Origin: Candidatus Omnitrophota bacterium
GTDB lineage: Bacteria; Omnitrophota; Gorgyraeia; 1-14-0-20-64-10
NCBI GenBank assembly: GCA_016177405.1
Contig: JACOVG010000021.1
Location: forward strand, 14,434-78,433
Direction: 5' to 3'
Length of the DNA: 64,000 nt
Within the stretch, counting starts at the first letter, position 1. Every line of letters starts with the position of its first letter. Positions 6,321 to 30,899 of this stretch are shown here, piece by piece. The notes below the pieces were generated by a model, which had not been told where the DNA came from, ran no database searches, and saw only the letters and a list, made by a program, of their open reading frames with translations. The position numbers were made by a program, and so were the translations under genes.

Positions 6321-8605
6321 CAGACCCGATCCTCCATCTTGAAGAGACGCATCTGGACCCACGAGAAGCTCATCGTGATGAAGAAAAGGAGGTACCCGAC
6401 CGCCGCGGCCCGCCCCATCTCAAACCGGTGGAACCCGGTCTCGTAGAGGTACCAGACCACCGTGGTGGTGGAGCCCAGGGGCCCGCCCTGCGTCATCGCG
6501 AAGATCTCCGGGAAGACCTGAAAGGCGTGGATGGTGTTGACCACCGTCGCCACCAGAAGAATCGGCTTCAGCTGCGGCAGGGTGATGTGCCTGAACTTCT
6601 GCCACTCGTTGGCCCCGTCGATGGCCGCCGCCTCGTAGAGCTCCGAGGGGATCGTTTGCAGGCCCGCCAAGAACAGCACCATGTAATAGCCGAAGCTCGC
6701 CCAGACGTTCATCATCATGATGGAAAGCAGGGCCAGCCGGGTGTTGAGGAGCCAGTTCGGCGTGGGCGGCGGCAGACTCAGCGCCCGCAGCCCCAGGTTC
6801 ACCAGGCCGCCGGGGGAATAGAGGTAGGTGAAGATGGTGGCGATCACGATGACCGAGGTGGCCACCGGCAGGAAGAGGCCCGCCTGGTAGAGGCCCTTCA
6901 GGGGAACCTTGGTGTTGATCAGAACCGCCGCGAAAAGGGCCAGCGCCATGGTGGGCGGGATGGTCCCCGCCGCGAAGAAAAACGTGTTCGCCAGGGCCCG
7001 GAGGAACTCGGGGCTGCGCCCGATCTCCAGGAAGTTCCTCAAGCCCACAAAGGTGAATTCGGAGCTCAACAGGTTGTAGCGGGCAAAGCTCAAGACGAGC
7101 GAATGCACGAGCGGCGTCAGGCTGAAGACCAGAAAGATGGCCAGCCAGGGCGACAGAAAAATCAGGCTCACCGCCAAATCCCGGGGCGAGCGGGAAACCC
7201 TCGCCGCGATCCCCCGCCCCCGCCGCCTGGCCAACAGCCAGAGGAACATTCCGGCCAGGCCCGCGGCCGCCAGCAGGCCGAACACCACCGCGTCGCTCAC
7301 CCCCGTCTTCACCTCGGGGCTGGCCAGGATTTCGTTGATGGCGGCGGCGGCCTCGGCCAGGGCCGCGCTGGGGCGGCGGTCCTTCAAGACGACCTCCTCC
7401 ACCGCGCGGGTGATCCACTCCTGCATCTCCACCCACCGGGGATGGGCCGGGGGGGCCACCGCGAACCGGACCTGGTCAAAAAAGAGCTTCTGCTCCGGGT
7501 GGGTCTTGTAATAAGGATGGTTGAGGGCCGACTTGGCGGTGGGGACGATGTTGCGCTGGGCCTCCACAATGGCCATCGCCTGCTCCTCTTCCATCAAGAA
7601 GAGGGCCAACTTGAGGGCCGCCTCCGGGTGCTTGGCGCTTTTTAAGACGGACAGGATCTCCCCGCCGGCAAAGGAGGCCGGCGTTCCCCGGAGGGCCGCC
7701 GGCCGGGGGCACAGGCCCACGCCGAAATTGAGCGTGGGATTCATCTGGGGAATCAGGGAGAAGTTCCAGGAACCGGAAATTTGGATGCCCACCCGGCCCT
7801 GGGCGAAGAGCTGGTTCACCTGGGTCTGACGCTCCACCAGCGCGTAGGGCTTGAGCATCCGGTAGAACTCCAGGGCCTCCACCACCGGCGGCTGGTCCAG
7901 CAGACAGCGCTTCCACCGCGAATCCAACACCTCGCCGCCGTTGCCCCAGGCGAAGGAAAGGAACTCCTGCCAGGGGGCGTACGGCTCCGCCACGTGGATG
8001 CCGATCCCGTAAACGTCCGGCCCCAGGGCGTCAACGGCGCTGGCGGCCTGGAGAAGCTCTTCCCAGGTGGCCGGGGGACGGTCCGGGTCAAGCCCCGCCC
8101 GGCCGAAGAGATCCCGGTTGTAAAAAAGGATGCGGGTCCCGGCCAGCCACGGCAAGCCGTAGATCCGCTCCTTGAAGGCGGCCGGCTCCCAGAGGAAATA
8201 CCGGTCCCGGATGTCCCGTGAGGCCTCGGTCAGATCGGTCAGGACGCCGGAGGAGGCGAACTGCGGCACCCAGTCGGTCCCCAGCTCGCACAGGTCCGGG
8301 GCGTTGCCGGCGGCGATCGAGGTGATGATCTTGTCCAGGCCGTAGTCCCAGGCCAGCTGTTGAAACCGCACCCGGATGCCAGGATTCTGGCGCTCGAACT
8401 TGGCCAGGAGGCCGCGCATCAGCTCCTCGCCCACCGAAAGCTCCCAGAAATCAATGGTGACTTCGGAGGCGAAGGCGGGTGCGGGCTTAAGGGCGAGGGG
8501 TGAAAGGAGAAGGAGCGTCATGGCGAGCCCGCCAAAGAATTTCGGCGGGCGAAGCAATCTCTCGATCACGGGGCTAAGTCTACCGCCGGAGGAATAGATT
8601 GACAA
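6320..8605 (-). CDS. Fused extracellular solute-binding protein (family 1, MalE-like) plus ABC permease (MalF/UgpA type)
   Basis: The 761-aa ORF is a single continuous frame. The N-terminal ~430 aa look like a periplasmic sugar-binding protein with the shared LAMT leader. The C-terminal ~300 aa form a six-TM permease with an EAA loop (AAAIDGANEWQKFRHITLPQLKPIL). The track start is a TTG at 8605; a GTG at 8567-8569 would give MIERLLRPPKFFGGLAMT, which is more plausible. Confidence 0.75.
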   Translation of the reverse strand: MSIYSSGGRLSPVIERLLRPPKFFGGLAMTLLLLSPLALKPAPAFASEVTIDFWELSVGEELMRGLLAKFERQNPGIRVRFQQLAWDYGLDKIITSIAAGNAPDLCELGTDWVPQFASSGVLTDLTEASRDIRDRYFLWEPAAFKERIYGLPWLAGTRILFYNRDLFGRAGLDPDRPPATWEELLQAASAVDALGPDVYGIGIHVAEPYAPWQEFLSFAWGNGGEVLDSRWKRCLLDQPPVVEALEFYRMLKPYALVERQTQVNQLFAQGRVGIQISGSWNFSLIPQMNPTLNFGVGLCPRPAALRGTPASFAGGEILSVLKSAKHPEAALKLALFLMEEEQAMAIVEAQRNIVPTAKSALNHPYYKTHPEQKLFFDQVRFAVAPPAHPRWVEMQEWITRAVEEVVLKDRRPSAALAEAAAAINEILASPEVKTGVSDAVVFGLLAAAGLAGMFLWLLARRRGRGIAARVSRSPRDLAVSLIFLSPWLAIFLVFSLTPLVHSLVLSFARYNLLSSEFTFVGLRNFLEIGRSPEFLRALANTFFFAAGTIPPTMALALFAAVLINTKVPLKGLYQAGLFLPVATSVIVIATIFTYLYSPGGLVNLGLRALSLPPPTPNWLLNTRLALLSIMMMNVWASFGYYMVLFLAGLQTIPSELYEAAAIDGANEWQKFRHITLPQLKPILLVATVVNTIHAFQVFPEIFAMTQGGPLGSTTTVVWYLYETGFHRFEMGRAAAVGYLLFFITMSFSWVQMRLFKMEDRV
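8517..8564 (-). repeat. Leader cassette copy (variant cgtcatggcgag...cgaagcaatctctc) encoding the signal peptide of the SBP-permease fusion
   Basis: cgtcatggcgag-cccgccaaagaatttcggcggg-cgaagcaatctctc; the core is the inverted repeat cccgcc/ggcggg. Confidence 0.7.
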
Positions 8606-8645
8606 GCCTCTCCTCTTAAACGGATAATTAAATTCCTAACCTAAG

Positions 8646-9299
8646 ATGAAACCTAAGCTTCTGATCGCTTGCGATTTCGACGGAACGCTCACCCGGCAGG
8701 ACACCCTGGTGACGATCCTGGATTCCTTCGGCTCCCCTTCCTGGAGGGAAGTCCAGCAAAAGGTCGTTTCCGGTGAAATCCCGATCCGGGAGGGGCTCGC
8801 GGCGGAGATGGCCTCTGTCCGGGCCAACCGCGAGCAGTTGATCGAGCTTTTGACCCAGCAGGTTGGCGTGGATCCGGCTTTTTCCGGCTTCCTTCATCTG
8901 ACGCGGCGGGAGGGGGTGCCCCTGGTCTGCCTGACCGGCGGCTTCGACCTGTGCGTGGAGACGGTTCTCAAAAAGGAGGGGCTCTGGCCTCTGCCTTATC
9001 TTGCCAACCGGCTCCTGAAGGATAACGGCTCCTGGCATGTGGAGTTTCCGTACCCCTCGGCCACCTGCGCCGCCTGCGGCCACTGCAAGGCCGATCCGAT
9101 CCGCGGCTGGAACGAGCAGGGCTACACCACCGTCTTTGTGGGCAACGGGGTAACCGACCGCTGCCCGGCCCGGGTGGCCAACCTCACCTTCGCCAAGGAG
9201 GAGCTGGGCCAGTGGTGCCAAAGCCAGGGTCTGCCCTGGGTGCCTTACGAGAATTTCTCTGACGTCGAGCAGGAATTAAGGAGGAGGGAATGGATATAA
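8646..9299 (+). CDS. HAD-superfamily subfamily IB phosphatase, MtnX-like (2-hydroxy-3-keto-5-methylthiopentenyl-1-phosphate phosphatase family)
   Basis: Begins with the DFDGTLT HAD motif I, has the C-x-x-C-G-H-C-K Cys motif typical of MtnX-like proteins, and ends with the GNGVTD motif. Confidence 0.6.
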   Translation: MKPKLLIACDFDGTLTRQDTLVTILDSFGSPSWREVQQKVVSGEIPIREGLAAEMASVRANREQLIELLTQQVGVDPAFSGFLHLTRREGVPLVCLTGGFDLCVETVLKKEGLWPLPYLANRLLKDNGSWHVEFPYPSATCAACGHCKADPIRGWNEQGYTTVFVGNGVTDRCPARVANLTFAKEELGQWCQSQGLPWVPYENFSDVEQELRRREWI

Positions 9300-9973
9300 A
9301 AACGAGATTGCTTCGGGCCCTTGGGGCCCTCGCAATGACGACCACTTTTCTTTCGCCCCTCACCCTTGACCCTTCATCCGCTTACGCCTCGGTCAAGCAG
9401 GAGGTGTACGTCAGCGGGACGGTGGAGTCCTTCGGCGGCTACACCTTCACCGAGTCGCTCACCTTCACCGTGGACAAGCCCGGCTCCCGGGAGATCGGCG
9501 CCATCACCATGGAAGGCGTCTACAACGGGGAATACCCCTGGATCCTTCGGGCCTACACCGACAACTTCCACTACACCGGAATCGGGGGCGCCAGCCGCCC
9601 GGCGAGCGCCGCGGGGCTCGTGTCCAAGGACGGCCGCTTCGCGATCCCACTGGAGGTTCACTCTCCCCTGTACGACGAGGGGATCTGGCGCCGGGTCCCG
9701 GATCTAAGCGATCCGGATCCCATCCCCTACCAACCCGAGCCGGATCTGCGGCCGACGGTCTACACCGACTGCGTTCTGATGGGGATAGACCCCCGGAACG
9801 GCGCCTGGGTGGCGGGCCCGGACGGGGTGCTCTTCACCGCCGACGACTCGCTGCTGGGCGACTTCACCGCCAAGACCCCCTGCGAGATCCTGGTCCGGGC
9901 CAACGCCGACGCCGCCGCGGCCGCCGGCGAATATGAAACCTTCCTTTATCTCGAGATCGTCCCCGCCCCGTGA
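9290..9973 (+). CDS. Secreted protein of unknown function with the shared LAMT leader; paralog of 10881..11912
   Basis: The signal peptide is MDIKTRLLRALGALAMTTTFLSPLT. The block AAGLVSKDGRFAIPLEV is shared with 10881..11912 (AGLVSADGRFAIPLKL). The G.Y..F/L.LE-V/I C-terminus resembles a beta-strand terminus of pilin or spore-coat-U-like subunits. Confidence 0.6.
   Translation: MDIKTRLLRALGALAMTTTFLSPLTLDPSSAYASVKQEVYVSGTVESFGGYTFTESLTFTVDKPGSREIGAITMEGVYNGEYPWILRAYTDNFHYTGIGGASRPASAAGLVSKDGRFAIPLEVHSPLYDEGIWRRVPDLSDPDPIPYQPEPDLRPTVYTDCVLMGIDPRNGAWVAGPDGVLFTADDSLLGDFTAKTPCEILVRANADAAAAAGEYETFLYLEIVPAP
9304..9340 (+). repeat. Leader cassette copy (gagattgcttcg-gggcccttggggccc-tcgcaatgacg)
   Basis: Identical over ~38 nt to the reverse complement of 29509..29546. 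Confidence 0.8.
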
Positions 9974-10884
9974 AAAACCGGTGGTCATCGCGAGGCCCGG
10001 AGGGCCGTGGCGATCTCGCTTTAAAAACGGGATTGCTTCGTCCGCCAAAAATCATTGGCGGACTCGCAATGACGTTTTTATTTCTCACGACTGCCTTGGC
10101 GGTGGAGGTCAGCCCCACCCGGCTCGAGCAGGCCATCTCCGCCGACCAGCCGACCCTGGGGACCTTGGAAATCTCCAATCCCTCCTCCCGGGCGGCCCGC
10201 GTCCAGATCCAAACCGGGCCCTACCGCTACCTCGAGCCCAAGTTCAGGCTCCCCTCGGCCGAAGATTGGTTTCAATTCGAGCCGGCCGCCTTCAGCCTGG
10301 CCCCCGGAGCGTCGCTTACGGTTTCGTACACGATCACCCCGGCGGCCAACGTCCGGGACGACGCGGCCGCCGAGTACCTGGCCGCAATCCTGGTGGACCA
10401 GCTGCCGGAAGAGCCCAACGTCATTGCGAGGAGCAACAGCGACGAAGCAATCTCGCAAGCCTCGCCACAGAACGTTGGCGGGCAAGCCAAGGTCACCTTC
10501 GTGCCCCGCTTCGCCGTGCCGGTTTACCTCACCCTTCCGGAACGGGAGAAAAAGGAGCTGGAGCTTGCGGGGCTCACCGTCCGGGTCGGAGAATCGCCGG
10601 ACCTCTTGAGGTTCGGCGTCGCGCTTAAAAACACCGGCACGGTTCACCTTCGGCCAGCGGGCTCTTTGGTGATCCTCTCCGAGGCGGGGACAGCCGTCGA
10701 ATCCAGAACCCTGGGCAGATCCCTCCCCATCCTTCCGGGCGCCACCCTGGAGCTCCCGGCCCTGGTTCCCATGCCCGGGAGCGCGGGCCGGTACCGGGCC
10801 GCCGTCACGGTCCAAGCCGACGAAGCTCTCCTTCTGCAAAAAGAGATCGGCTTCGAGGTGACGCCCGAGGGGGCCGTGAAGTGA
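9970..10884 (+). CDS. Secreted two-domain beta-sandwich protein, PapD/pilus-chaperone-like fold candidate
   Basis: Has the LAMT leader, followed by two ~110-aa repeats with the chaperone-like pattern (VEVSPTRLE...TLEISNPSS.RAARVQI...FEPAAFSLAPGASLTVSYTI, and a second copy VTFVPRFAVPVYLTLPE...). The GTG start overlaps the stop of 9290..9973 (GTGA). Confidence 0.45.
   Translation: MKNRWSSRGPEGRGDLALKTGLLRPPKIIGGLAMTFLFLTTALAVEVSPTRLEQAISADQPTLGTLEISNPSSRAARVQIQTGPYRYLEPKFRLPSAEDWFQFEPAAFSLAPGASLTVSYTITPAANVRDDAAAEYLAAILVDQLPEEPNVIARSNSDEAISQASPQNVGGQAKVTFVPRFAVPVYLTLPEREKKELELAGLTVRVGESPDLLRFGVALKNTGTVHLRPAGSLVILSEAGTAVESRTLGRSLPILPGATLELPALVPMPGSAGRYRAAVTVQADEALLLQKEIGFEVTPEGAVK
10030..10074 (+). 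repeat. Leader cassette copy (gattgcttcg-tccgccaaaaatcattggcgga-ctcgcaatgacg, followed by tttttatttctc)
   Basis: Core inverted repeat tccgcca/tggcgga. About 60 nt are nearly identical to 10893..10950. Confidence 0.8.
10419..10455 (-). repeat. Inverted-orientation leader cassette copy embedded in-frame in CDS 9970..10884
   Basis: cgtcattgcgag-gagcaacagcgac-gaagcaatctcg is the reverse complement of the leader consensus. It is translated as NVIARSNSDEAISQA in the inter-domain linker. Confidence 0.7.
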
Positions 10885-11912
10885 AAAAAATGAGATTGCT
10901 TCGTTCGCCAAAGTTCATTGGCGGACTCGCAATGACGTTTTTATTTCTCCCCCCGGCTTTCGCCCAGAAGGCCCTGCGGATCGGGTCGGTCTCTTACGAT
11001 CAGCACGTCCACTCCACCGAGCTGATTAAGTTCACCGTGGCCGTCAAGAACAATGAGGCGACCACCCAGTTTGCCGAGGTGGACATCACCTTGACCAACG
11101 TGGAGACCGAGCAGGAGCTCACCCTGGTGCCCGTGCTCACCGGGAATGTCCTGGCCGGCCAGGAGTCTGTCCTGGTCACCACTTACCAGAACATCCCTGA
11201 CGGCACCTACACAGTCAGCTTTCCCCTTTTTGACGGCGACGGTGTCCGGGTGGACCGGGTCACCGGGTCCACCCCCATCCACATCGGCACCGAAACCGAA
11301 ACCCTGCAGGTCTTTCCGGAGGTGATTCATTTGGGAACCCTGCCGCCGGGCCGCGCGATGTTCCCGACGCCCATCGAGGTGCGCTGGGCTTTCTACCGGT
11401 TCAACCGTTTAAGACTCGATCAGCCCTTCTACATCCGGATTTACTCCGACAACGCCGCCCGCTACCGCGGCGTCCGGGGCGCCCTGCGGCGCAACTCGCC
11501 GGCCGGCCTGGTCTCCGCGGATGGGCGCTTTGCCATTCCGCTGAAGCTCTGGAACCTGAACTACGGCCCGGACATGCAGGAGGGGGGCTGGGACGCCGCC
11601 CTGGCCGGGCCGCCGCCTGTGGACGACGACGCCTTCTGGATCGGCCCGGAGCTTCTGGAGGGGGGCCGCAACCTCGGCTCGGCCAACTGGGTGAGGATCC
11701 CGGATCTTTCGGAGATGACCTCGGACCCGGTGAGCTGGCGGCGGCTGATCGGCCAGGACCCGTTCGACAACCGGTATGTCTCCGACTCCAATCAAACCGG
11801 AGACTTCACCCTAAAGAGCCCCTTCACCCTTTATCTGGCCGCCGAGGCGGGACCCACCGCCGTGGAAGGGGCCTACACCGCCAACCTCGTGGTGGAGCTG
11901 TGGGACCCGTAG
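10881..11912 (+). CDS. Secreted protein of unknown function with the LAMT leader; paralog of 9290..9973
   Basis: The signal peptide is MKKMRLLRSPKFIGGLAMTFLFLPPAFA. It shares the blocks named above and the C-terminal pattern GAYTANLVVELWDP. Confidence 0.6.
   Translation: MKKMRLLRSPKFIGGLAMTFLFLPPAFAQKALRIGSVSYDQHVHSTELIKFTVAVKNNEATTQFAEVDITLTNVETEQELTLVPVLTGNVLAGQESVLVTTYQNIPDGTYTVSFPLFDGDGVRVDRVTGSTPIHIGTETETLQVFPEVIHLGTLPPGRAMFPTPIEVRWAFYRFNRLRLDQPFYIRIYSDNAARYRGVRGALRRNSPAGLVSADGRFAIPLKLWNLNYGPDMQEGGWDAALAGPPPVDDDAFWIGPELLEGGRNLGSANWVRIPDLSEMTSDPVSWRRLIGQDPFDNRYVSDSNQTGDFTLKSPFTLYLAAEAGPTAVEGAYTANLVVELWDP
10893..10938 (+). repeat. Leader cassette copy (gagattgcttcg-ttcgccaaagttcattggcgga-ctcgcaatgacg, followed by tttttatttctc)
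   Basis: Read directly from the sequence. Confidence 0.8.
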
Positions 11913-13906
11913 GCGTCATGGCGAGGCGCAGCCGAAGCCATCTCGTTTTTGGATTGCTTGGGGCCCTTGCAATGACGGCGGGTCTGCTCACGACCGCTTC
12001 TGCGCAGGAGATCACGAGTCAGGAAACCCTTTCCCTGGGACGGGCCGACCAGCTTCTCCGCCAGAAGGCGTTCGATCAGGCCATGGAAGAGCTGGGGCGC
12101 CTGCCCAAGGAGTTCCACGAGGATCCGCTCTTCCGAGGCCATCTGGGCCGGGCCGCGGGCGCCCTTTACCGGACCGCCCGGAGAAGAACCTACCGGGAGG
12201 GGCTGGCCCCTTTTCGCGGGCGGGCGGCGGCCAGCGTCCGGGTGACCCACCGTAAGCAGGACTCCGGCCGGAATTCCGACCAGACCTCGGACAACCGCGG
12301 CTGGCAGATCAACGAGCGGCTGGAGACCACGTTGGGGCGGGAGGGCAGGATTAACGCCCGTTTTCTCCAGGAGGCGGACGGTTTCAAGAACGGCCACCGG
12401 GATCTTCGCTACCGCACGCTCCTGGTCGATTTCTTCAACGGTTCCTCCCACCTGGCCCTGGGAGATTCCGCCAGCTATGGCAGCCCCTACTTCCTGCGGG
12501 GCTCCCGGCTCCGGGGGGCCGACCTCCTTTTGCGCGGCGAAACCCACGAGCTTCAGTTGGTGGCCGGCGGCTACCCCTTCTGGCTGGAGTCCCGGGACGA
12601 GTACATTTATCCTCGGACCGTCTGGGGCTTCCGGGACAAATGGAATCTGATGGGAGAGCGCGTGAGCCTGGGGGCCGGCCTCATGCAGGCCAGAGATTCC
12701 GAGAAGATCCGGACGATCGACACGGCCAACCGCCCCCGGGACAATGTCGTCTACTCCCTGGAGCAGGCCGTGAGACTCGTCCCCGACGTCTGGTGGCTCA
12801 AGGCCTACGAGGCCTACAGCGTCACCGACGACGACCTCCTTGAGGAGCGCTTCGGAAACGCCCGGAAGCTCAAGGACACCGCCTTCCGGCTGGAGTCGGA
12901 CCTGATCCAGCCCTTTTTGAGATGGAGAAGCCGCTACGAACGGACCGGCCCTGAATTCCGGCTCCTCACCGATATCCCCTCCGGCTCGGTGGTGAACGCC
13001 AAAGGGATCACGGCCGACCGGGAATTCATTCAGCAATATCTGGATCTCGCCCCGCTGGGTCCGCTGGACCTGGACCTGGAGGCGAGCTGGTACCGCAACA
13101 GCCTGGACGGGCGGGACAACGTGGAGCAGACCCGCCAGCGGTGGGCCACGGTGGAGGCCGGCTTCCTGGTGCCCGAGGGCTGGCCCAAACCCAGGGTCCG
13201 CGGCACCGCCACCGAAACCCTCTCAAGCCCCGGTTCCGCCACCCGGGCCTCGCAAACCAGAACCTTTGATGTAAGAACCGATCTCACCCATCGCCTGGGG
13301 GACTGGTCCCTAAACGGCTTCGGCACCTTCAAGGCGGAGCACCCCCTCAAGGACAAAACCGCCTTTGACGAGCAAACCTCCTGGTCGGCCGGCTCCCAGA
13401 TTTCGCGCCCGCTGGGAAAACGCCTCTACTGGACGAGCCGCTACGAATTCCGTTTCTTCGATGAGGTCTTCGATGAGACGCGGATCCGGGACCACAGCGA
13501 CGAGATCAACAACAACCTCTCGGTCCGCCTCTGGAGCACCGCCTCGCTGGGGCTTCACCACAGCTTTCTCCGGGGAATGCTTCGGGGAACCGCCAGCGCC
13601 AAGAAGATCGAGGCCAACCGCCACACCGGAAGCGCCTCCCTCTCCTGGCCGTACGTCTGGACCAGGGCGGACAAGCGCCGCCGGCTGACCATTCACCCTT
13701 CGCTCGCCTACTACGTCAGCAACGTCACCAACAGCCTGGAAAGGCGGCCCATGGCCAGCGGCGGGCTCCGGCTGGCCTACGAGGCCTACCCGGACTGGAA
13801 GCTGGAGTTAAACGGCAATTTCCGCTGGGACGATGACGGCGAGGCCGACGAGGTCCGCACCGAGGAATCCCGCGTCTGGCTTTCCTTCACCACCCTCTGG
13901 CCGTAA
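11900..13906 (+). CDS. Large secreted protein, candidate outer-membrane beta-barrel (usher/porin-like)
   Basis: Has the LAMT leader (MARRSRSHLVFGLLGALAMTAGLLTTASA). The 668-aa sequence is rich in alternating aromatic/polar strands and Arg/Tyr/Trp, and the C-terminus (SRVWLSFTTLWP) is barrel-like. The true start may be the internal ATG near 11918. Confidence 0.45.
   Translation: MGPVGVMARRSRSHLVFGLLGALAMTAGLLTTASAQEITSQETLSLGRADQLLRQKAFDQAMEELGRLPKEFHEDPLFRGHLGRAAGALYRTARRRTYREGLAPFRGRAAASVRVTHRKQDSGRNSDQTSDNRGWQINERLETTLGREGRINARFLQEADGFKNGHRDLRYRTLLVDFFNGSSHLALGDSASYGSPYFLRGSRLRGADLLLRGETHELQLVAGGYPFWLESRDEYIYPRTVWGFRDKWNLMGERVSLGAGLMQARDSEKIRTIDTANRPRDNVVYSLEQAVRLVPDVWWLKAYEAYSVTDDDLLEERFGNARKLKDTAFRLESDLIQPFLRWRSRYERTGPEFRLLTDIPSGSVVNAKGITADREFIQQYLDLAPLGPLDLDLEASWYRNSLDGRDNVEQTRQRWATVEAGFLVPEGWPKPRVRGTATETLSSPGSATRASQTRTFDVRTDLTHRLGDWSLNGFGTFKAEHPLKDKTAFDEQTSWSAGSQISRPLGKRLYWTSRYEFRFFDEVFDETRIRDHSDEINNNLSVRLWSTASLGLHHSFLRGMLRGTASAKKIEANRHTGSASLSWPYVWTRADKRRRLTIHPSLAYYVSNVTNSLERRPMASGGLRLAYEAYPDWKLELNGNFRWDDDGEADEVRTEESRVWLSFTTLWP
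11913..11975 (+). repeat. Composite of an inverted leader-cassette copy (cgtcatggcgag-gcgcagc-cgaagccatctcg) immediately followed by a direct copy (ggattgcttggggcccttgcaatgacg)
   Basis: Read from the sequence. The inverted half begins at the stop codon of 10881..11912, and the direct half encodes the FGLLGALAMT of the next gene. Confidence 0.65.
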
Positions 13907-13910
13907 CGTC

Positions 13911-24044: not shown

Positions 24045-24048
24045 TGCC

Positions 24049-24816: not shown

Positions 24817-24911
24817 GGCTTTAGGGCGACTCCTTCTTTTGTTGGTTGTTGGGTTCTGATAATAAGGCTTTAGCGCGACCGTTCGCGAGGGGCCTTACGA
24901 GGCGAAACCTT

Positions 24912-24941: not shown

Positions 24942-26578
24942 GGGCTGGCCTTGGTCCGGCGCGCTTCCAGCAAGCCCTGAAGCTTGAGAAGCTCGGGATC
25001 TTCGGGGTGCACCTTGAGGGTCAGGTGAAGCTTCCGCTGGGCCTCGTCCAGCTCTCCGCGGCGGATCGCCAGCTCCACGTCGATCAGGGCCCAGTGGATC
25101 TCTTCCCGCGCCCCCCGGGGGACCATCGAACGCAGGCGGACCTGAGCTTCGTCCAGCCGGCCGGAGCGAAGATCCAGCGCGATCAGGTTGAAGGCGGCCG
25201 GGGTGAAGGAAGGGTCCGCTTCCAGGGCCCGGACGTATTGCTCCCGGGCCAGCGATTCCCGCCCGGCCCGATCGTAGGCCGTGCCCAGGTTGTTCAAGGC
25301 CTCGGCGTAGCGGGGTTGGCCGCGCAGCGCTTCCTGATAGTGCTGGATGGCTTGCTCCACGCGGCCGCGGCTTAACAGGATGTTTCCCAGGTTACTGTGA
25401 ACCTTGGCGCTGCCCGGAGGAAAACGGAGGGCCTCCTCATAAACCCGGACCGGCTCCTGCCAGACCCAGATCCGGTGAAGGCTGATGCCGCTTAAAAAAA
25501 GAATCCACAAGCCCGCCTCCAGGCCGATCCATTTGCGCCAGCGGGGCCGCGCCGCGGCCAGCCGGGCCTTGGCGGCCGCTGTCACCAGCGCCAGCCCCGC
25601 CAAGGGAAGATAGAGCCAGTGGTCGGCCATGTTCGGATCCAGCTGAACCACCAGCCCCGAAACCGGAAGCCAGGTCAGGAAGAACCACCCTGCCCCAAAG
25701 AGGAGGGCCCTGTCCCTTCGGAACCGCCACGCGAGCCAAAGAACCGCCGCCAGCGCCGCCGCCGGAAACCACACCGCCCCAGCGAACCAGGAGGTGACCC
25801 AAGGGATCCGGCGCTCCATGTGGAGATCCACCGGAAGAAGGAAGATTCGAAGGTAAGTGACGAGCATCCGGGGAACCGTGAAAATCCGGCCGGCCCATTC
25901 CAAGGGAGGCTGGTGCCCGCCGAATCCCAGATGGGCGCGGACAGCCAGGTAGAGCAAGAAAAGAAAGACGAGGGGCGCGAAAGGAATCCAGCGCTTGGCC
26001 CAGGGGATCGGCCGGCCCTGGTTCAGCGCCGTCCGATCCGCCCAGAGGAGAAGCAGGGGAAGGATGAGGCCGGCCTCCTTCGAAAGCCAAGCCGCGAGGG
26101 CGCCGGCCAGCGCCGTCAGGTACCAGAAAAAAGCCGAGGGCCCCGCGCCGCGCCGGAACTTGAGCCAGCCGATTACGCCCAGCAGAACCCCGCAAGCCGC
26201 CAAGGGATCCGCCCGCCCGGAAAGGTACCCGACCGCGGCGACCTGGACCGGGTGAACCAGGAAGATCAAGCCCGCGAAGAAGGCCGGGATGGACACACCC
26301 AGCAGAGTCCAGGCCAGGTAAAAGACGAGCGCCGTGTTGACAAGATGAAGGCTCACGCTCGTCAGGTGAAAGCCCAGCGGATTCAACCCCCAGAGCTGGT
26401 AATCCACCAGGAAGCTCACGCCCTGCAGGGGCCGGTAGTAGCTCTGATGAAACACCTCCTGATAAAAGGAGGGCCCAAAGAGGTCCGGAAAAAACCTCCA
26501 GGATCTTAGGAACCGGTCTTCGACGATCAGGAGCTTATCGTCCCAGAGGAAGGGGATTTGGAAGCTGGGCAGATACAA
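24938..26578 (-). CDS. Polytopic membrane protein with a C-terminal TPR-repeat domain (TMTC/DUF1736-like, PMT-type glycosyltransferase-like)
   Basis: The N-terminal ~380 aa contain about 9-11 TM helices and a DUF1736-like WDD motif. The C-terminal ~160 aa carry TPR repeats (AKVHSNLGNILLSRGRVEQAIQHYQEALRGQPRYAEALNNLGTAYDRAG...). The track start is a TTG; the in-frame upstream sequence is also hydrophobic, so the true start is uncertain. Confidence 0.65.
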   Translation of the reverse strand: MYLPSFQIPFLWDDKLLIVEDRFLRSWRFFPDLFGPSFYQEVFHQSYYRPLQGVSFLVDYQLWGLNPLGFHLTSVSLHLVNTALVFYLAWTLLGVSIPAFFAGLIFLVHPVQVAAVGYLSGRADPLAACGVLLGVIGWLKFRRGAGPSAFFWYLTALAGALAAWLSKEAGLILPLLLLWADRTALNQGRPIPWAKRWIPFAPLVFLFLLYLAVRAHLGFGGHQPPLEWAGRIFTVPRMLVTYLRIFLLPVDLHMERRIPWVTSWFAGAVWFPAAALAAVLWLAWRFRRDRALLFGAGWFFLTWLPVSGLVVQLDPNMADHWLYLPLAGLALVTAAAKARLAAARPRWRKWIGLEAGLWILFLSGISLHRIWVWQEPVRVYEEALRFPPGSAKVHSNLGNILLSRGRVEQAIQHYQEALRGQPRYAEALNNLGTAYDRAGRESLAREQYVRALEADPSFTPAAFNLIALDLRSGRLDEAQVRLRSMVPRGAREEIHWALIDVELAIRRGELDEAQRKLHLTLKVHPEDPELLKLQGLLEARRTKASP

Positions 26579-26628
26579 AAGGGCCCCGGAAAGAAATAGG
26601 GCCGCGAGGAAGAAAGGGTGGGCGCGTT

Positions 26629-27174
26629 TTACCAGGGCTGGCGGCTCTCCTCGCCGGGGACGGCCCCGAAGGTCTTGTCCGGCTTGCCGTCGAAATCTTC
26701 GTCCACCCGCCCCCCGGCGATCTTGGTGCCCCCCAGGGCATAGTAGAACCAGGCGTCCGGTTTGCCATCGTGGTTCTTGTCCATGATCATGAGGTCCTTG
26801 ATGCCCTCTTTATAGTAAGACCAGGCGTCGGGTTTGCCGTCGAAGTTGAGATCCGCCCGTTCCCGAATCGCCAAGCCCTTCTCCATCTGACGCAGGAGGT
26901 CCGGCTTGCCGTCGCCGTTGCGGTCCACCTCGGAACGCTCCGGTTTTCCATCCTTGAAGTAGATCACGATCTCCCGCTTGCCGTCCCCCTGCCGGTCCCT
27001 CTCCACCCGGACCAGGAGATCCCCCTCGTAGAACTTCCACTCATCCGGTTTGCCGTCCTTGTTCGTGTCCAGGGCCTCAACCCGCTCCTTGGCCGCGAAA
27101 GCGGCGGAAGGCAAAAGAAACAGCGCCGTCATTGCGAGGACGCGAAGCGGACGAAGCAATCTCTCTTTTTTCAT
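26629..27174 (-). CDS. Secreted calcium-binding-like repeat protein with six D-x-[DN]-x-DGKPD repeats
   Basis: Has the LAMT leader (MKKERLLRPLRVLAMTALFLLPSAAFA). Repeats: DTNKDGKPDEW, DRQGDGKRE, DRNGDGKPD, DLNFDGKPDAW, DKNHDGKPDAW, DEDFDGKPD. These are EF-hand/excalibur-like DxDxDG loops. Confidence 0.65.
   Translation of the reverse strand: MKKERLLRPLRVLAMTALFLLPSAAFAAKERVEALDTNKDGKPDEWKFYEGDLLVRVERDRQGDGKREIVIYFKDGKPERSEVDRNGDGKPDLLRQMEKGLAIRERADLNFDGKPDAWSYYKEGIKDLMIMDKNHDGKPDAWFYYALGGTKIAGGRVDEDFDGKPDKTFGAVPGEESRQPW
27127..27165 (-). repeat. Leader cassette copy (cgtcattgcgag-gacgcgaagcggac-gaagcaatctctc)
   Basis: Read directly from the sequence. Confidence 0.75.
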
Positions 27175-27740
27175 TCTAGGAACCTCAAGGTTTCGTTCAG
27201 GTAATTGACCTTACGGTGGATCTCCTGCCCCGCCGAGGGCAGCCGCTGAAGATCGCTGCGCAGGGCCGAGGCGGTCGACTGCAAAGAGGCCACCAGATTC
27301 TTGCGCTCCTTGTTGCGGGGGCCCAGTCCCGAGGTGATCTCGTTGATCAGCTGGGCCACCTCCTTGAGCTCATCGAAGCGCCTAAGGCTCAAGGGGGCCA
27401 GATCGAACTCGCCGCGCGCCATCAGGTGGAGGTAGCGCTTGATCCGAACCAGGGGCCCGGCGATGGTGTGCGAGATGAACAGCGTCACCAAAAGCGCCAC
27501 CGGCACCAACAGGAGAAAACCCAGCGCCAGGCGCATGTAGATCAAACGGAGAACCTCCACCAGGCGCCCCTGCGGATAGACGTTGGCCAGCCGCTCCACC
27601 AGGTGCGACCACCCGGTGACGTAAACCACCCAGACCGAGATCCCAAAGAAAACAGCCAGAAGCAGGAAGGTCACCAGCATCATGCGCAGCTGCAGGGAAC
27701 TGTCCGTGACAAACTGCGTGCGCTTGAATTTGTCCGCCAT
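27171..27740 (-). CDS. Small membrane protein with a HAMP domain
   Basis: Two TM helices are followed by a HAMP-like segment (SHTIAGPLVRIKRYLHLMARGEFD) and a short coiled-coil tail. Its stop overlaps the start of 26629..27174 (ATGA). An AAGGAG RBS lies 8 nt upstream. Confidence 0.6.
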   Translation of the reverse strand: MADKFKRTQFVTDSSLQLRMMLVTFLLLAVFFGISVWVVYVTGWSHLVERLANVYPQGRLVEVLRLIYMRLALGFLLLVPVALLVTLFISHTIAGPLVRIKRYLHLMARGEFDLAPLSLRRFDELKEVAQLINEITSGLGPRNKERKNLVASLQSTASALRSDLQRLPSAGQEIHRKVNYLNETLRFLE

Positions 27741-27766
27741 CTAAGGCACTCCTTTTATTATTATCA

Positions 27767-28657
27767 TTACTGCCGAACCACCCGAAGGTCCCGGTGAACG
27801 GTCAAGGTCAGCCCTTGGCCGCGGGACTTCTCCACCTGAAGCTGAACCTCCTTGAGGGGCAAGTAGCGGGTCGCCTGTCCGTCCACGGCGGCGACACGGT
27901 CGCCGGCGAGCAATCCCGCGCCCGAGGCGGAACCTCCCGGGTCCACCGCGGCCACGGTCAACCCCATCCTCTCCGTGGAAAACCGGAAGCCCGGCCAGGC
28001 AGGCTGCGCGGGGCCGGCGGGGATGAGTTCGATCCGCCGCGCGAGGGTGATCTTGGCCATCGACCCGCCGGGCCCCAGGAGGAGATACGCCGCCTCCCGA
28101 ACCGGCAAGAAGGCCAGCGACTCTCCCCAGACCGCCGTCAACCGGTCGCCGGCGGCGATTCCGGCGCGCTGGGCCTGCGACCCGGGCTCCACCGACTGGA
28201 CCTCGGGGTATCCCTCGCCGGCCTTCAACCGCAGGCCCCAGCGCGTCAAGAGCTCGCCGGACAAATCGGCGGACAGCGTAAGCGAAGGGACGCCGCGCTT
28301 GGCTTTGAGATCGGCCGCCCGGTTCAGGGCGTCATCGGCCTCCTGAAATTCCGGGTAAATCTGCAGGGCCTTGCGAAAGAGCCCCTGGGCAACGGTGAAA
28401 TCGCCGCCGGCCAGCGACCGGTTTCCCAGGTACAGGTAGTTGCGCTCCGGATCGTCAAAGAAGATCTCGTCAATCTCGCCGCGCGCGATCACCCGTTCAC
28501 CGTCCACGGTGCTGACCACAATCCTGTCCCGGTGTTCCTCCACCACCAGCCCCTTCAGCTCCTCGCCGGAGGTGAAGTAGATCGCGTCCGCGAAAGCGGT
28601 GGAAAGAAATAAGAACGACATTGCGAAGGCCCCAAGCAATCTTGTTTTCATTCGCAC
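27767..28657 (-). CDS. Secreted tandem-PDZ-domain protein
   Basis: Leader MRMKTRLLGAFAMSFLFLSTAFA. Two PDZ-like segments (VEPGSQAQRAGIAAGDRLTAVWG and VDPGGSASGAGLLAGDRVAAVDG) follow an N-terminal TPR-like helical region. Confidence 0.6.
   Translation of the reverse strand: MRMKTRLLGAFAMSFLFLSTAFADAIYFTSGEELKGLVVEEHRDRIVVSTVDGERVIARGEIDEIFFDDPERNYLYLGNRSLAGGDFTVAQGLFRKALQIYPEFQEADDALNRAADLKAKRGVPSLTLSADLSGELLTRWGLRLKAGEGYPEVQSVEPGSQAQRAGIAAGDRLTAVWGESLAFLPVREAAYLLLGPGGSMAKITLARRIELIPAGPAQPAWPGFRFSTERMGLTVAAVDPGGSASGAGLLAGDRVAAVDGQATRYLPLKEVQLQVEKSRGQGLTLTVHRDLRVVRQ
28617..28645 (-). repeat. Degenerate leader cassette copy (cgacattgcgaaggccccaagcaatcttg)
   Basis: Read directly from the sequence. 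Confidence 0.6.
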
Positions 28658-29556
28658 AGCTTCTTGTAGCTTTCGTAGTGGTGAATCGCCAGGCCGCCGA
28701 AGCCCGCTTGGCCGCCCACGGCGTTCACGATCTTCTTGAGCTCCCGGCTCATCACGTTGCAGGTGGTCCCCCCGAAACTCACGTACGCGGGGAAAAGGTC
28801 CTCCTGGGTTTCCTGGCCGATCAAGACCGGCTTGCCCACTTGGCCCCCGTACTCCAGTTCCAGCCGCACCAGGCGCAGGGTTCCATCCGATCCCTCGGCG
28901 AAATTCCGGTAAGCCATGACGGTGACGGTGTCCACCGTGTCCAGGATGTGCTGGGTGGGGCTCTTGACCGAGCCTCGCCAGAGAATCCGGTAGCTGGCGT
29001 CGTCGTCAAACCAAAAGGGAATGTCCACCCCGAAAATCACGGGAACCGGCTCCTTCCGTATCGCTTCGGCCATCTTCGCGTTCAAATCCAGGTAGCCCCC
29101 CAGAAGCTCGCCCGGCCGTTCGTTCCAGGCCTGGGTCAGCAAATACACCTCCACATCGGAGTGAATCCCGTCGAAGCGCTCCTCGGGCGGGGCCTGGCGG
29201 TTCATCTGAAGGACCGCGCCGGTCCAGGCCATGGGAAGGGTGTGGTAGCGGCTCTTCCCCCAGCGCGGGTCGCCCGCCAGGGCATGGACCGAAAGCCCCA
29301 TCTCGTGGGCCTGGCGGTTAAAATCGCGGTACGTCCGGTCCCAGGGGGGCTCCAGGTTGTAGGCCGACAGGTACAGCGTGCCGATTTGGTGCCTTCGGCA
29401 GAAAGCCAGGAGTTTTGCCTTGGATTCTGGTTTGGCGGCGATGCGGGCGTCCCAGACCCACATCGCCCGGGGCGGCTCCTCGGCGAAAACGGAGGGGAGA
29501 AATAAAAACGTCATTGCGAGGGCCCCAAGGGCCCGAAGCAATCTCGTACCCCTCAC
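28648..29556 (-). CDS. Secreted TIM-barrel glycoside-hydrolase-like protein (GHL/DUF4015-type, family uncertain); paralog of the central domain of 32083..34419
   Basis: Leader MRGTRLLRALGALAMTFLFLPSVFA. Conserved blocks shared with 32083..34419: MWVWD/SWVWKYD, AHEMGLSVHALAGDPRW/AHEAGVHVEALQGNPLW, GKPVLIGQETQ/GKKVVIGVETQ, GFGGLAIHHYESYKKL/SFGGLAVHAYDSYRLL. Confidence 0.6.
   Translation of the reverse strand: MRGTRLLRALGALAMTFLFLPSVFAEEPPRAMWVWDARIAAKPESKAKLLAFCRRHQIGTLYLSAYNLEPPWDRTYRDFNRQAHEMGLSVHALAGDPRWGKSRYHTLPMAWTGAVLQMNRQAPPEERFDGIHSDVEVYLLTQAWNERPGELLGGYLDLNAKMAEAIRKEPVPVIFGVDIPFWFDDDASYRILWRGSVKSPTQHILDTVDTVTVMAYRNFAEGSDGTLRLVRLELEYGGQVGKPVLIGQETQEDLFPAYVSFGGTTCNVMSRELKKIVNAVGGQAGFGGLAIHHYESYKKLCE
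29509..29546 (-). repeat. Leader cassette copy (cgtcattgcgag-ggccccaagggccc-gaagcaatctcg); exact reverse-complement match to 9304..9340, preceded by gagaaataaaaacg
   Basis: Read directly from the sequence. Confidence 0.8.
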
Positions 29557-30266
29557 TCGAGGGTGATGTCGTCGAGGTAAACGGTTCCCAGCCCCGCCCC
29601 CTCGGGATAAAGTTCCCCCTCGAAACAGATCGAGATGGAAGCCAATTTGGTGTAGTCAATGAAGTAGGAGGACAACGGAATCACCGCCTTCTGCCATTCG
29701 GCCGTCAACCGGCCCGCCGGCAGGTACTTGCCGATCTCCTCGGACTTGACCGAATCCCCCACCCGGTCCCAGTGCCGGTCGGCCAGCCCCACCATAAAGT
29801 TCTCCTCCCCCTTGTCTCCGCGGACCCAGAAGGTGACTGCCTGGTAGCCGGAGGCGTCAAAATACTGCTCCCCCACCATCGGGGGGCTGGGTTGGTCGGT
29901 GGTGGGCGCCACCAGATAACCGCTTGTCTTTAGAAGGGTGTAATAGCCGCACCAACCGCCCATGCCGTAGGGTCCGCCCTCTGACTGCTTGTCGTAACGG
30001 ATCAGGAGCACGCTGCTCTTGGCGCCGTTCACCTCTTCCTCCACCCGGCTCATCATGATCCGAGAGGGGGCCTTCACATAAACATTGGCCCGCCCGCCGG
30101 CCCGGTTCTGGATCTCCTCCCCTTCAAAATCGTCCACGAGGAGCGGCTCCGCCGCGAAAGCGGTCGTGAGTCGCGCGTCGTGAGTCGTGAGTAGAAAGAC
30201 GCAGAAGGCAAGCCCTACAGTCCTTACCCATGACCCATGACCCATGACCCATGACTTTTTCTTCAT
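29553..30266 (-). CDS. Secreted single-domain protein carrying the recurrent CBM-like beta-sandwich module
   Basis: Module motifs: PLLVDDFEGEE..., GGWCGYYTLL, VTFWVRGDKGEENFMVGLADRHWDRVGDSVKSEEIGKYLPAGRLTAEWQKAVIPL, GTVYLDDITLE. Two heptanucleotide repeat tracts lie in the signal-peptide codons. Confidence 0.65.
   Translation of the reverse strand: MKKKSWVMGHGSWVRTVGLAFCVFLLTTHDARLTTAFAAEPLLVDDFEGEEIQNRAGGRANVYVKAPSRIMMSRVEEEVNGAKSSVLLIRYDKQSEGGPYGMGGWCGYYTLLKTSGYLVAPTTDQPSPPMVGEQYFDASGYQAVTFWVRGDKGEENFMVGLADRHWDRVGDSVKSEEIGKYLPAGRLTAEWQKAVIPLSSYFIDYTKLASISICFEGELYPEGAGLGTVYLDDITLE
30164..30191. repeat. Heptanucleotide tandem repeat (tcgtgag x3 plus variant tcgcgcg) inside the signal-peptide codons of 29553..30266
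   Basis: tcgtgag tcgcgcg tcgtgag tcgtgag, read from the sequence; it encodes LTTHDARLTT. Confidence 0.75.
30226..30253. repeat. Perfect heptanucleotide tandem repeat (cccatga) x4, 10 nt downstream of the start codon of 29553..30266
   Basis: cccatgacccatgacccatgacccatga; on the coding strand this is (TCATGGG)x4, encoding SWVMGHGSWV. Each unit is 7 nt, so it is frame-shifting and carries out-of-frame ATGs. Confidence 0.8.
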
Positions 30267-30275
30267 TTTGTCCTC

Positions 30276-30899
30276 CTACTCCAGCTTAAGATCATCCAGG
30301 TAAACCGTCCCCCTGCCCACACCGCCGGGGAAAAGGGTGCCTTCGAAGCAGATGGCGACGGAGGCCGTCTGCTTGTGATCCAGGAAGAAGGCCTCCACGG
30401 GAATGACGGCCTTCTGCCATTCCGCGGTGACCTTCCCGGCCGGCAGGTACTTCCCGATCGGTTCGGACTTCACGGAGTCCCCCACCTCGTCCCAATGGCG
30501 GTCGGCCATTCCCACCAGGAAGTTCTCATCGCCGGCGGCCCCCCTCACCCAAAAGGTGAGGCTCCGGTAGCCGGAGGCGTCGAAGTAGCGGCTGCCGCTC
30601 TTCAGCAGGGTATACCAGCCGCACCAGCCCCCGGAATCGTAAGGGCCGCCCCGCCCCTTCTTGTCGTACTTCAACATCAGGGAACCGGAGCCTTGATGGG
30701 CCGGGTCCTTCACCAAAAGGGCCAGCGACCGTGAGGGCTCTTTCAGGTAGGTGCTGGCGCGCCCGCCCAGCTTATTGACCGAAGCCCCCTCGAAGTCGTC
30801 AATCAACAGGGGCTCCGCCGCGAAAGCGGCGGTAAGCGGTAAGCAGTAAGCAGTAAGCAAAACAGCGGTCATCGCGAGCAATCTCTTTCTCATTCCCAT
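30276..30899 (-). CDS. Secreted single-domain protein carrying the recurrent CBM-like module; close paralog of 29553..30266
   Basis: PLLIDDFEGASVNKLGGRAS..., GGWCGWYTLL, LTFWVRGAAGDENFLVGMADRHWDEVGDSVKSEPIGKYLPAGKVTAEWQKAVIPV, GTVYLDDLKLE. Confidence 0.65.
   Translation of the reverse strand: MGMRKRLLAMTAVLLTAYCLPLTAAFAAEPLLIDDFEGASVNKLGGRASTYLKEPSRSLALLVKDPAHQGSGSLMLKYDKKGRGGPYDSGGWCGWYTLLKSGSRYFDASGYRSLTFWVRGAAGDENFLVGMADRHWDEVGDSVKSEPIGKYLPAGKVTAEWQKAVIPVEAFFLDHKQTASVAICFEGTLFPGGVGRGTVYLDDLKLE
30831..30858. repeat. Heptanucleotide tandem repeat (ggtaagc x2, agtaagc x2) in the signal-peptide codons of 30276..30899
   Basis: ggtaagcggtaagcagtaagcagtaagc, encoding LTAYCLPLT on the coding strand. 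Confidence 0.75.
30868..30886 (-). repeat. Truncated leader cassette copy (gtcatcgcgagcaatctc)
   Basis: Read from the sequence; it lacks the central hairpin. Confidence 0.5.

Follow-up and report, generated by a model that had tools for sequence, protein, structure and literature searches.

Palindromes resembling CGTC-tagged REPs appear to encode parts of the signal peptides of nine genes in an Omnitrophota genome

Repetitive extragenic palindromic sequences (REPs) are among the commonest repeats of bacteria and their roles are debated; those of the CGTC-tagged type have no known mobilising enzyme. As characterised by Di Nocera, De Gregorio and Rocco (2013, PMC3733652), a CGTC-tagged REP has an unpaired CGTC head (with TGTC or CCTC variants), a stem of 8-9 bp that starts with AT, a loop of 4-5 nt and an unpaired 3-nt tail with the consensus CCA; the elements are dispersed, dimers predominate and a dedicated transposase is absent. 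The group includes dRS3 of Neisseria and the Rickettsia palindromic elements (RPEs) RPE-4 and RPE-6, while its CGTC-1 members are reported in Bradyrhizobium, where their loops are variable, and in Micavibrio. CGTC repeats are reported there from five phyla, Omnitrophota not among them, and REPs are described as usually extragenic and close (~20 nt) to the 3' end of the upstream open reading frame (ORF), with post-transcriptional roles proposed. Occasional intragenic REPs are known and N-terminal RPE-1 insertions are reported to be expressed, but most REPs at ORF N-termini are suggested to be non-coding, in other words the result of misannotated starts (PMC3733652). The locus considered here lies in one 64-kb window of one metagenome-assembled genome (MAG) of a Candidatus Omnitrophota bacterium (GCA_016177405.1, contig JACOVG010000021.1, positions 14,434-78,433). 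"Window" means this whole stretch of 64,000 nt, to which all positions refer; its G+C content is 62.5%. Identical Logan contigs come from groundwater samples, for example SRR12113433. It holds a short palindrome that resembles the CGTC-tagged REPs and that is found, in nine genes, within the sequence encoding a predicted signal peptide.

The element has the layout GATTGCTTCG-(core)-CTCGCAATGAC(G) and occurs in 12 copies between 8517 and 30885, grouped in two operon-like blocks (Table 1). Its right arm, CTCGCAATGACG, is matched 13 times in the window with up to two mismatches where 5.4 matches are expected, a figure reached by none of 100 shuffles, and the pattern GAT-xyz...z'y'x'-ATGAC has 11 matches against 0.72 expected; a search with both arms confined full copies to 8517-29543. 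Nine of the copies are in sense orientation, each in one of nine unrelated genes and no further than ~20 codons from its start. The remaining three are antisense: two stand directly upstream of sense copies, forming inverted dimers inside the leaders of genes 3 and 5, and one lies in the body of gene 3. A first-pass annotation, made from the letters of this DNA, had proposed a cassette shared by at least ten leaders. The cassette is real and far above chance, but nine genes, not ten, have a sense copy, and it is not specific to leaders, the element being widespread outside signal peptides and in many phyla. This spread had escaped that annotation, as had the copies in antisense, their pairing as inverted dimers and the location directly behind upstream stops.

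The wider distribution is best seen in a two-arm scan of one genome per species, which returned at least 120 stretches from Alphaproteobacteria, Chloroflexi, Bacteroidota, Cyanobacteria, Patescibacteria and other groups. The matches listed comprise 171 copies and include Bradyrhizobium, Sphingomonas, Micavibrio, Chloroflexus, Pedobacter, Mucilaginibacter, Flavobacterium, Nostoc, Microcoleus, Patescibacteria, Zixibacteria, Planctomycetota, Desulfobacterota, Sporomusa and Helicobacter, and the exact arms of the window element are present in Bradyrhizobium and Micavibrio genomes. Metagenomes, where both arms and a following T run were required, contain at least 126 copies, the number among the matches listed. 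Of the 171 listed genome copies, 107 have G and 56 have A directly after ...GCAATGAC, and the opposite strand therefore starts with CGTC or TGTC; CTG precedes the GATTGC left arm in 62 of the 171, which on the opposite strand reads GCAAT-CCA-G and gives a CCA tail. The window copies have CTC, from GAGATTGC, as their tail, and nine of the 12 copies end in ...ATGACG (CGTCAT on the other strand), the other three having GGTC or CGAC. The stem begins with AU and UA pairs that are invariant in all 14 aligned copies, and every arm variant keeps AT...AT. A contiguous stem of 5 bp (ATTGC/GCAAT) is followed by an internal loop of 3-4 nt and a core of 3-33 nt, most often the 5-nt CTTCG; among the 171 listed copies the commonest cores are CTTCG (25) and CTGCG (13). 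Twenty-three of the 88 longer cores in this set close with a stem of at least four pairs, against 5.6 in shuffles, and these 23 represent 21 different sequences, many with TTCG loops. Adjacent copies among those listed are inverted dimers in 32 of 40 pairs; their CGTC ends face outwards, and the spacer is most often 26 nt long. Among cross-phylum copies, the minimal form of 26 nt (GTCATTGCGAGCGAAGCGAAGCAATC) has on its antisense strand overlapping motifs of GCGAAGC, a sequence that is an unusually stable DNA mini-hairpin; the constraint on these copies may act on single-stranded DNA or on RNA.

When the 1,744 ORFs within 1.5 kb of the 171 listed copies were clustered, no recurrent neighbour gene or transposase was found, the largest family reaching at most 7 of 120 loci. 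Long ORFs in the frame that reads LAMT accompany 23 of the 171 listed copies and 25 in a control frame, none of them signal-peptide-like; where a real gene follows a listed copy outside the window, its start lies just after the repeat, and nearly all of the 126 listed metagenome copies have short downstream ORFs. Judged from these sequences, the element looks non-coding outside this lineage. Most defining features of the superfamily match, and the element is best described as a copy family of CGTC-tagged REPs, short, non-autonomous and palindromic, probably, though tentatively, of subfamily CGTC-1. Among the origins offered by the first-pass annotation was a REP-like or miniature inverted-repeat transposable element (MITE)-like sequence co-opted as a signal peptide; of those origins, this is the one that the cross-phylum palindrome and the shared CGTC-REP features support. 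MITEs proper carry the terminal inverted repeats of a parent insertion sequence and target-site duplications, and typically exceed 100 bp. As a MITE the element was rejected: its units measure 25-43 nt, or up to ~70 nt if the outer stem is counted, direct repeats do not flank the internal copy, and no parent insertion sequence was seen. A literature search with the literal arm sequences gave unrelated primer matches only.

We put at about 0.7 the probability of the following explanation: CGTC REPs lying after stop codons have been tolerated only in signal-peptide coding regions, in fitting orientation, frame and length, and now supply residues that these signal peptides need. The REPs would sit at their usual site, shortly (a few nucleotides) beyond the stop of a preceding gene that runs in the same direction, and purifying selection against every other placement would create the link with signal peptides, leaving visible only those copies whose orientation, frame and length yield an acceptable signal peptide of the general secretory (Sec) type. 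The A-rich left flank and left arm would read K/T-R-L-L-R, a basic n-region; the right arm and T-rich flank would read L-A-M-T-(F-L-F-L), the start of a hydrophobic h-region; the core would add one to seven uncharged or basic residues. The repeat would thus be translated and supply essential signal-peptide residues, and it is in that sense that we speak of co-option. We infer a translation start upstream of the element, cleavage of the leaders and tolerance as the cause of the signal-peptide link from sequence and position. What we show directly is which repeat this is, how it is distributed, where it lies at the junctions, its bias in frame and codons, and its covariation.

The positions of the copies are consistent with this explanation. 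Eight junctions have their first copy 2-10 nt behind the stop codon of the preceding gene, which runs in the same direction, and the start of the next gene overlaps or abuts that stop, by ATGA or GTGA or with a Shine-Dalgarno sequence directly before the ATG; where genes abut in this way, the usual post-stop site of a REP thus lies at codons ~3-20 of the downstream gene. The leader copies all measure 25, 34 or 43 nt, that is, 3n+1, the 25-nt form being the 34-nt form minus 9 nt in frame, and this length places R-L-L-R of the left arm and L-A-M-T of the right arm in one frame. Elsewhere such lengths are found in 24 of the 171 listed genome copies and 17 of the 126 listed metagenome copies (14%). 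Initiation at the ATG inside the element would leave core length free, and the uniform 3n+1 lengths thus argue for translation of the whole element; on sequence grounds the N-terminal copies are very probably translated here.

That ATG, in ...GCAATGACG, is where translation would begin (there or later) if the copies were ordinary extragenic REPs and the leaders annotation artefacts, a possibility that we consider highly unlikely. It would account for the public annotation of gene 3 (P0001, 100% identical, locus-tag prefix HYS41), which starts at the ATG within the right arm, reads MTFLFL... and lacks most of the predicted signal peptide, and it would agree with the published caution about N-terminal REPs (PMC3733652); moreover, G-rich core sequence 6-12 nt before that ATG might pass for a ribosome-binding site. 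However, the leaders would then shrink to 11-18 residues, with no basic n-region and ~5-10 uncharged residues before A-x-A, whereas those of homologues have 20-30 residues and end in the same cleavage motif, and all the leader copies would be of 3n+1 length although their cores were free to vary. The upstream frame is free of stops, also where it crosses the antisense halves of the dimers. A strong Shine-Dalgarno sequence, AAGGAGGAGGG, stands immediately 5' of the gene 2 ATG at 9290, and stop-start overlaps of the ATGA/GTGA kind mark the upstream starts of genes 4, 7, 8 and 9, that of gene 7 with the gene 8 stop being ATGA. In gene 5, the head of the antisense copy, CGTCATGGCGAG, provides both the ATG and the n-region MARRSRSH.

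By inspection, each of the nine leaders has one to four Lys or Arg residues near the N-terminus, 15-24 uncharged residues and A/V-x-A before a polar or acidic residue, and alignment places the predicted cleavage sites of the gene 2 and gene 3 families at the same position as in their homologues. The leaders match canonical Sec signal peptides of the signal peptidase I class, and export and cleavage are predicted. Two other export signals were rejected, likewise by inspection: a twin-arginine translocation (Tat) signal, RLLR not being a twin-arginine motif, and a lipoprotein signal, a lipobox Cys not being at the right position. Beyond their leaders the nine products are unrelated, four with assigned families and five without a family match. 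No N-terminal sorting domain common to the carrier proteins was found in NCBIfam, and a profile of the nine N-termini against a protein database retrieved just six short ORFs at E > 0.1, which is uninformative. The tenth coding copy, antisense within gene 3, is in frame, encodes NVIARSNSDEAISQ and occupies a variable-length loop that is absent from most homologues. In a gene 3 homologue of 43% identity (P0006, locus L126) the same loop contains, at codons ~165-180, RAVISESDEEIAPSS, encoded by GTGATCAGCGAGTCGGACGAAGAAATCGCG, which looks like a degenerate REP relic; insertion at this place may therefore be old or recurrent.

Table 1. Genes with a sense copy of the element in their leaders, and REP copies of the window (predicted cleavage sites and fused arms are marked by a slash; dG in kcal/mol; z relative to shuffled sequence)
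Feature	Position	Strand	Description
Gene 1	6320-8575	-	Solute-binding protein/permease fusion; leader MIERLLRPPKFFGGLAMTLLLL...AFA/SE
Gene 2	9290-9973	+	Leader MDIKTRLLRALGALAMT...AYA/SV
Gene 3	9970-10884	+	Leader ...LLRPPKIIGGLAMTFLFLTTALA/VE
Gene 4	10881-11912	+	Leader MKKMRLLRSPKFIGGLAMTFLFLPPAFA/QK
Gene 5	11918-13906	+	Leader ...GLLGALAMTAGLLTTASA/QE
Gene 6	26629-27174	-	EF-hand/FG-GAP-like; leader MKKERLLRPLRVLAMTALFLLPSAAFA/AK
Gene 7	27767-28651	-	PDZ protein; leader MKTRLLGAFAMSFLFLSTAFA/DA
Gene 8	28648-29556	-	Leader MRGTRLLRALGALAMTFLFLPSVFA/EE
Gene 9	30276-30893	-	CBM30-like; leader MRKRLLAMTAVLL...AFA/AE
REP, gene 1 leader	8517-8559	-	43 nt; core CCCGCC-N10-GGCGGG; dG -24.6, z -2.5
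REP, gene 2 leader	9302-9340 (arms 9306-9339)	+	34 nt; core GGGCCC-TTG-GGGCCC
Antisense REP variant	9984-10015	-	Arms ATCGC/GCGAT; core GGCCC-TCC-GGGCC; starts 10 nt after gene 2 stop
REP, gene 3 leader	10031-10073	+	43 nt; core TCCGCC-N10-GGCGGA; dG -29.7, z -7.2
Inverted dimer	9984-10015/10031-10073	-/+	15-nt spacer; 136-nt fold -60.1, z -4.9
Intragenic antisense REP	10420-10452	-	Canonical cross-phylum form; core TCGCTGTTGCTC
REP, gene 4 leader	10894-10936	+	43 nt; core TTCGCC-N10-GGCGGA; dG -23.4, z -4.3; 9 nt after gene 3 stop
Antisense REP variant	11915-11942	-	Arms ATGGC/GCCAT; starts 2 nt after gene 4 stop
Short REP, gene 5 leader	11952-11976	+	25 nt; GGGCCC type minus 9 nt in frame
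Inverted dimer	11915-11942/11952-11976	-/+	9-nt spacer; 84-nt fold -39.9, z -2.8
REP, gene 6 leader	27128-27161	-	34 nt; weakly pairing core TCCGCTTCGCGTC
Short REP, gene 7 leader	28617-28641	-	25 nt; starts 6 nt after gene 8 stop
REP, gene 8 leader	29509-29547 (arms 29510-29543)	-	34 nt; dG -20.3, z -2.1
REP relic, gene 9 leader	30868-30885	-	Fused arms, core absent (GATTGC/TCGCGATGAC)
Non-leader REP cluster	2140-2211	-	Full variant 2187-2211, arms ATCTC/GAGAT, and two partial repeats

The arms are conserved as nucleotides, as the first-pass annotation had claimed for its flanks. In the window's long genes AGA accounts for 8% of the codons for Arg and GCA for 3.6% of those for Ala, and Leu is encoded by TTG in 15% and by CTT in 19% of cases; the leader copies use AGA in seven of seven cases, TTG in nine of nine, CTT in eight of nine and GCA in seven of nine, and this retention of rare codons argues for conservation at the nucleotide level. 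The compensatory variation proposed for the stem also rises above controls. When 14 copies are aligned, 78.6% of the cells pair, compared with 71.0 ± 1.7 after shuffling (0/500), and 20 cells are changed on both sides, against 9.8 ± 2.3 (0/500); with the partners slid, 31-51% of cells pair. Because the structure was derived from one of the aligned sequences and the copies are related, these figures are support rather than proof. The arms covary too, as ATTGC/GCAAT, ATCGC/GCGAT, ATGGC/GCCAT and ATCTC/GAGAT, with pairing kept in all. Rare codons and covariation together speak against plain conservation of a paralogous signal peptide, the outcome that the first-pass annotation had set against its own proposal. 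On the favoured explanation, the nucleotide conservation stems from constraints on the repeat (hairpin maintenance, copying or conversion between copies) and not on the peptide.

The same annotation held that the core is always a GC-rich inverted repeat, and here it went too far: strong folding (dG -19 to -30 kcal/mol, z -2.1 to -7.2) is seen in five of the nine copies in leaders, whereas three (27128, 28617 and 11952) fold no better than shuffles and one has no core. The conserved tract TTTTTATTTCTC is exact in three copies and variant in one; as the complement of the upstream ATAAAAACG flank, it makes up the 3' arm of an extended palindrome, ATAAAAACG ... CGTTTTTAT. In three copies this palindrome produces hairpins with a dG of -23 to -30 kcal/mol, and an outer stem AAAAACG/CGTTTTT lengthens that of the 10031-10073 copy. 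At gathering threshold, Rfam 15 had zero matches in the whole window. The copies were also considered as intrinsic terminators. Three resemble bidirectional terminators (A-run/hairpin/T-run), and internal loops lie between the GC core and the T run; a scan of 8000-14000 and 26000-32500 for the Rho-independent consensus flagged none of the copies, and termination is retained only as a weak possibility.

How far do such hairpins explain the retention of the element? They might be kept for a function in mRNA at the junctions, with signal-peptide coding a side constraint, an explanation that overlaps with co-option and that we think rather unlikely. Hairpins could sequester or abut start codons and thereby couple translation to the upstream gene, or they could stall at, or protect, the 3' end of the upstream cistron, as REPs near stop codons do in E. 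coli. In the E. coli mal operon REPs stabilise the upstream mRNA; Liang, Rudd and Deutscher reportedly found in 2015 that REPs within ~15 nt of stop codons lower upstream translation. The post-stop position of the first copies at eight junctions, with starts overlapping stops, fits such a role, as do the five stable hairpins, the stem covariation and gene 4, whose AUG lies within the outer stem. In an orthologue of gene 2 from another organism (locus L125; 57% protein identity, 51% identity at third codon positions, 66% at the nucleotide level) the cassette is at the same place, its arms identical over 20 of 20 nt, and the core, AGACGC-TGC-GCGTCT, is a different hairpin that still pairs. A location just 3' of ORFs and proposed post-transcriptional roles are also part of the published picture of REPs (PMC3733652). 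Against a hairpin role as the main constraint, four of the nine leader copies have a weak hairpin or none and still keep the coding arms, the element is absent from the orthologous junctions of a syntenic locus (L124) and of other relatives, the terminator scan flagged none of the copies, and covariation in a palindrome can come from copying at the DNA level without any RNA function. Alongside co-option, a further role of the hairpin is possible, in sequestering or abutting the start codon (coupling to the upstream ribosome) or at the 3' end of the upstream cistron.

The unrelated genes 2 and 8 share an identical run: the identity that had been noted between 9304-9340 and the reverse complement of 29509-29546 was confirmed and is slightly longer, 39 nt from 9302 to 9340 against 29509-29547. 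One might take from this, from the TTTTTATTTCTC extension common to genes 3, 4 and 8 and from the clustering of the copies in two operon-like blocks, that a paralogous signal-peptide module was spread by duplication or gene conversion and selected as a peptide, its likeness to a repeat being incidental. We judge this most improbable, and the related proposal of a recombination module for leader swapping finds little support. The copied unit stops at the edges of the palindrome and not at the cleavage site, the TTTTTATTTCTC extension is itself part of the palindrome, rare codons are conserved, antisense and intragenic copies exist, and identical arms occur in many phyla in non-coding contexts, which largely refutes a module of this kind.

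Orthologous loci provide some history. In L125 the gene 3 leader consists of an antisense copy followed by the right arm, giving MKLFTMSLRATRSNLGALAMTLL... The L124 locus, from another Omnitrophota MAG (GCA_964373805.1), has a canonical REP as an intergenic inverted dimer, 9531-9563(-) and 9579-9636(+), and at its positions 3140-3300, 3883-4060, 13066-13160 and 14143-14300 the leaders of the gene 2 and gene 3 orthologues and of two further genes are made of heptamer arrays, partly inverted, for example (GTCAGAA)n followed by (TTCTCTR)n. In other homologues the leader is ordinary or made of different simple repeats, yet the cleavage site and the N-terminus of the mature protein are conserved. 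This variety among orthologues indicates rapid leader turnover in the clade, often by repeats of extragenic type. Heptamer arrays are also found in the window. The leader of the gene at 29553-30266 (-) contains them at 30163-30192 and 30226-30255, on the coding strand TCATGGG four times and then a TCACGAC-type array, translated as SWVMGHGSWV...LLTTHDARLTT, and in the gene 9 leader TGCTTAC is repeated four times at 30832-30859, giving LLTAYCLPLTA; repeat-derived leaders are therefore not limited to REPs. An unlikely generalisation is that extragenic-type repeats (CGTC REPs here, heptamer arrays in relatives) serve Omnitrophota, and perhaps further lineages with densely packed genes, as raw material for signal peptides. 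In a palindrome like this one, A-rich on the left and T-rich on the right, the left flank and arm read as Lys/Arg codons and the right arm and flank as Leu/Phe codons. If the generalisation holds, a single post-stop insertion of such a palindrome could give the following gene an export signal, new or in place of the old one, and at the same time install a hairpin tying its translation to the upstream gene, and repeat-driven leader turnover would be a mechanism of secretome evolution, not just tolerated junk.

Several points weigh against the co-option of tolerated REPs. The NCBI start of gene 3 inside the right arm has been mentioned. The gene 1 copy has no upstream gene, and the post-stop position is therefore not the whole story. 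Where the CGTC family has a stem of 8-9 bp and a loop of 4-5 nt, the contiguous stem here is 5 bp long and the core varies. The two REP-bearing gene 3 orthologues are 44% identical to each other and 50% identical to homologues without a REP; they are not closest relatives in the sample, and gain and loss are indistinguishable. The sample is 64 kb of one genome with few junctions, and its copies may share common descent, in which case the frame and codon statistics overstate their independence; there are about five independent core types.

The neighbourhood of the copies has some features of its own. Gene 1 is one ORF that combines SBP_bac_1 (extracellular solute-binding) with BPD_transp_1 (ABC permease), an architecture seemingly shared by its L124 orthologue (772 aa). 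Between it and a HAD-family gene, 8577-8628 contains divergent sigma-70-like promoter matches, TTGACA-18-GATAAT (11/12) on the plus strand and a 9/12 match on the minus strand; gene 1, without an upstream gene, may accordingly head its own transcript. The non-leader cluster at 2140-2211 is a 21-nt tandem repeat of ~2.9 copies in a true spacer of 165 nt. It is the sole REP cluster that precedes a cytoplasmic gene (ROK-family), and the ATGAC end of its 2187-2211 copy overlaps the TGA stop of the gene at 2188-4743 (-). Very long ORFs of 2687, 2165, 4338 and 3269 aa occupy 13911-21974, 34451-40948, 40941-53957 and 54084-63893, all on the minus strand, in agreement with the giant proteins reported for Omnitrophota; none contains a REP, and the first has ARMT1-like, DUF4922 and NAGPA domains.

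The REP family and intragenic REPs were already known. What appears new is the systematic in-frame use of REPs as signal-peptide sequence in nine unrelated genes, as well as the occurrence of CGTC REPs in Omnitrophota and in many phyla beyond the five reported; in the literature searched, Omnitrophota papers included, no description of repeat-encoded leaders was found. N-terminal REPs are usually dismissed as misannotation, and the window offers a clean case in which they are very probably translated, since lengths that so regularly preserve the frame have hardly any other explanation. Functional protein sequence would here come from a DNA repeat that is selfish or structural, and would form the n-region and h-region of a Sec signal peptide. 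There is a practical side as well: gene callers may cut such genes back to the ATG inside the repeat, as in gene 3, and the signal peptide is then lost and secreted proteins are misclassified in MAGs.

Compared with the known CGTC REPs, the window element has the same head, AT stem start, short tail, inverted dimers, many dispersed copies and lack of a transposase; it also shares the location within ~20 nt of the 3' end of an upstream ORF, the intragenic copies and, with those of Bradyrhizobium, the variable loops. It differs in its stem of 5 bp with an internal loop and a separate core hairpin of 5-23 nt, in the added outer A/T stem and in a tail of CTC instead of CCA. The copies lie within downstream coding sequence, though the usual distance to the upstream stop is kept. 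The range found by the scan is much wider than the five phyla of the 2013 paper, and the nine N-terminal copies are apparently translated here.

The likeness to the GTAG-type systems of Pseudomonas and E. coli, that is, REP doublet forming hairpins (REPINs) and bacterial interspersed mosaic elements (BIMEs), is one of form and place: short hairpins, inverted doublets that fold as one, a site just downstream of genes and conservation within the genome. The head is CGTC, and neither a REP-associated tyrosine transposase (RAYT) nor a recurrent neighbour was found, the ORFs of the window not all having been scanned for Y1 domains. GTAG REP/RAYT pairs are usually lineage-specific, whereas the arm sequence of the window element is conserved across phyla. 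Closer in their effect on proteins are the RPEs, which Ogata and co-workers reportedly described in 2000 and 2002 as selfish elements inserted in frame in protein-coding genes. RPE-1 measures ~100-150 bp. Here as there, unrelated proteins accommodate palindromes in frame, as a rule in surface loops or at their termini, and the copy at 10420-10452 is exactly of this type. RPE insertions are, to our knowledge, scattered along proteins and have not been described as suppliers of signal peptides; in the window nine of the ten coding copies are in Sec leaders, in one frame and one orientation. Finally, in ordinary Sec signal peptides the sequence drifts freely, whereas in these nine leaders a conserved repeat with rare codons appears to encode some of the n-region and roughly half the h-region.

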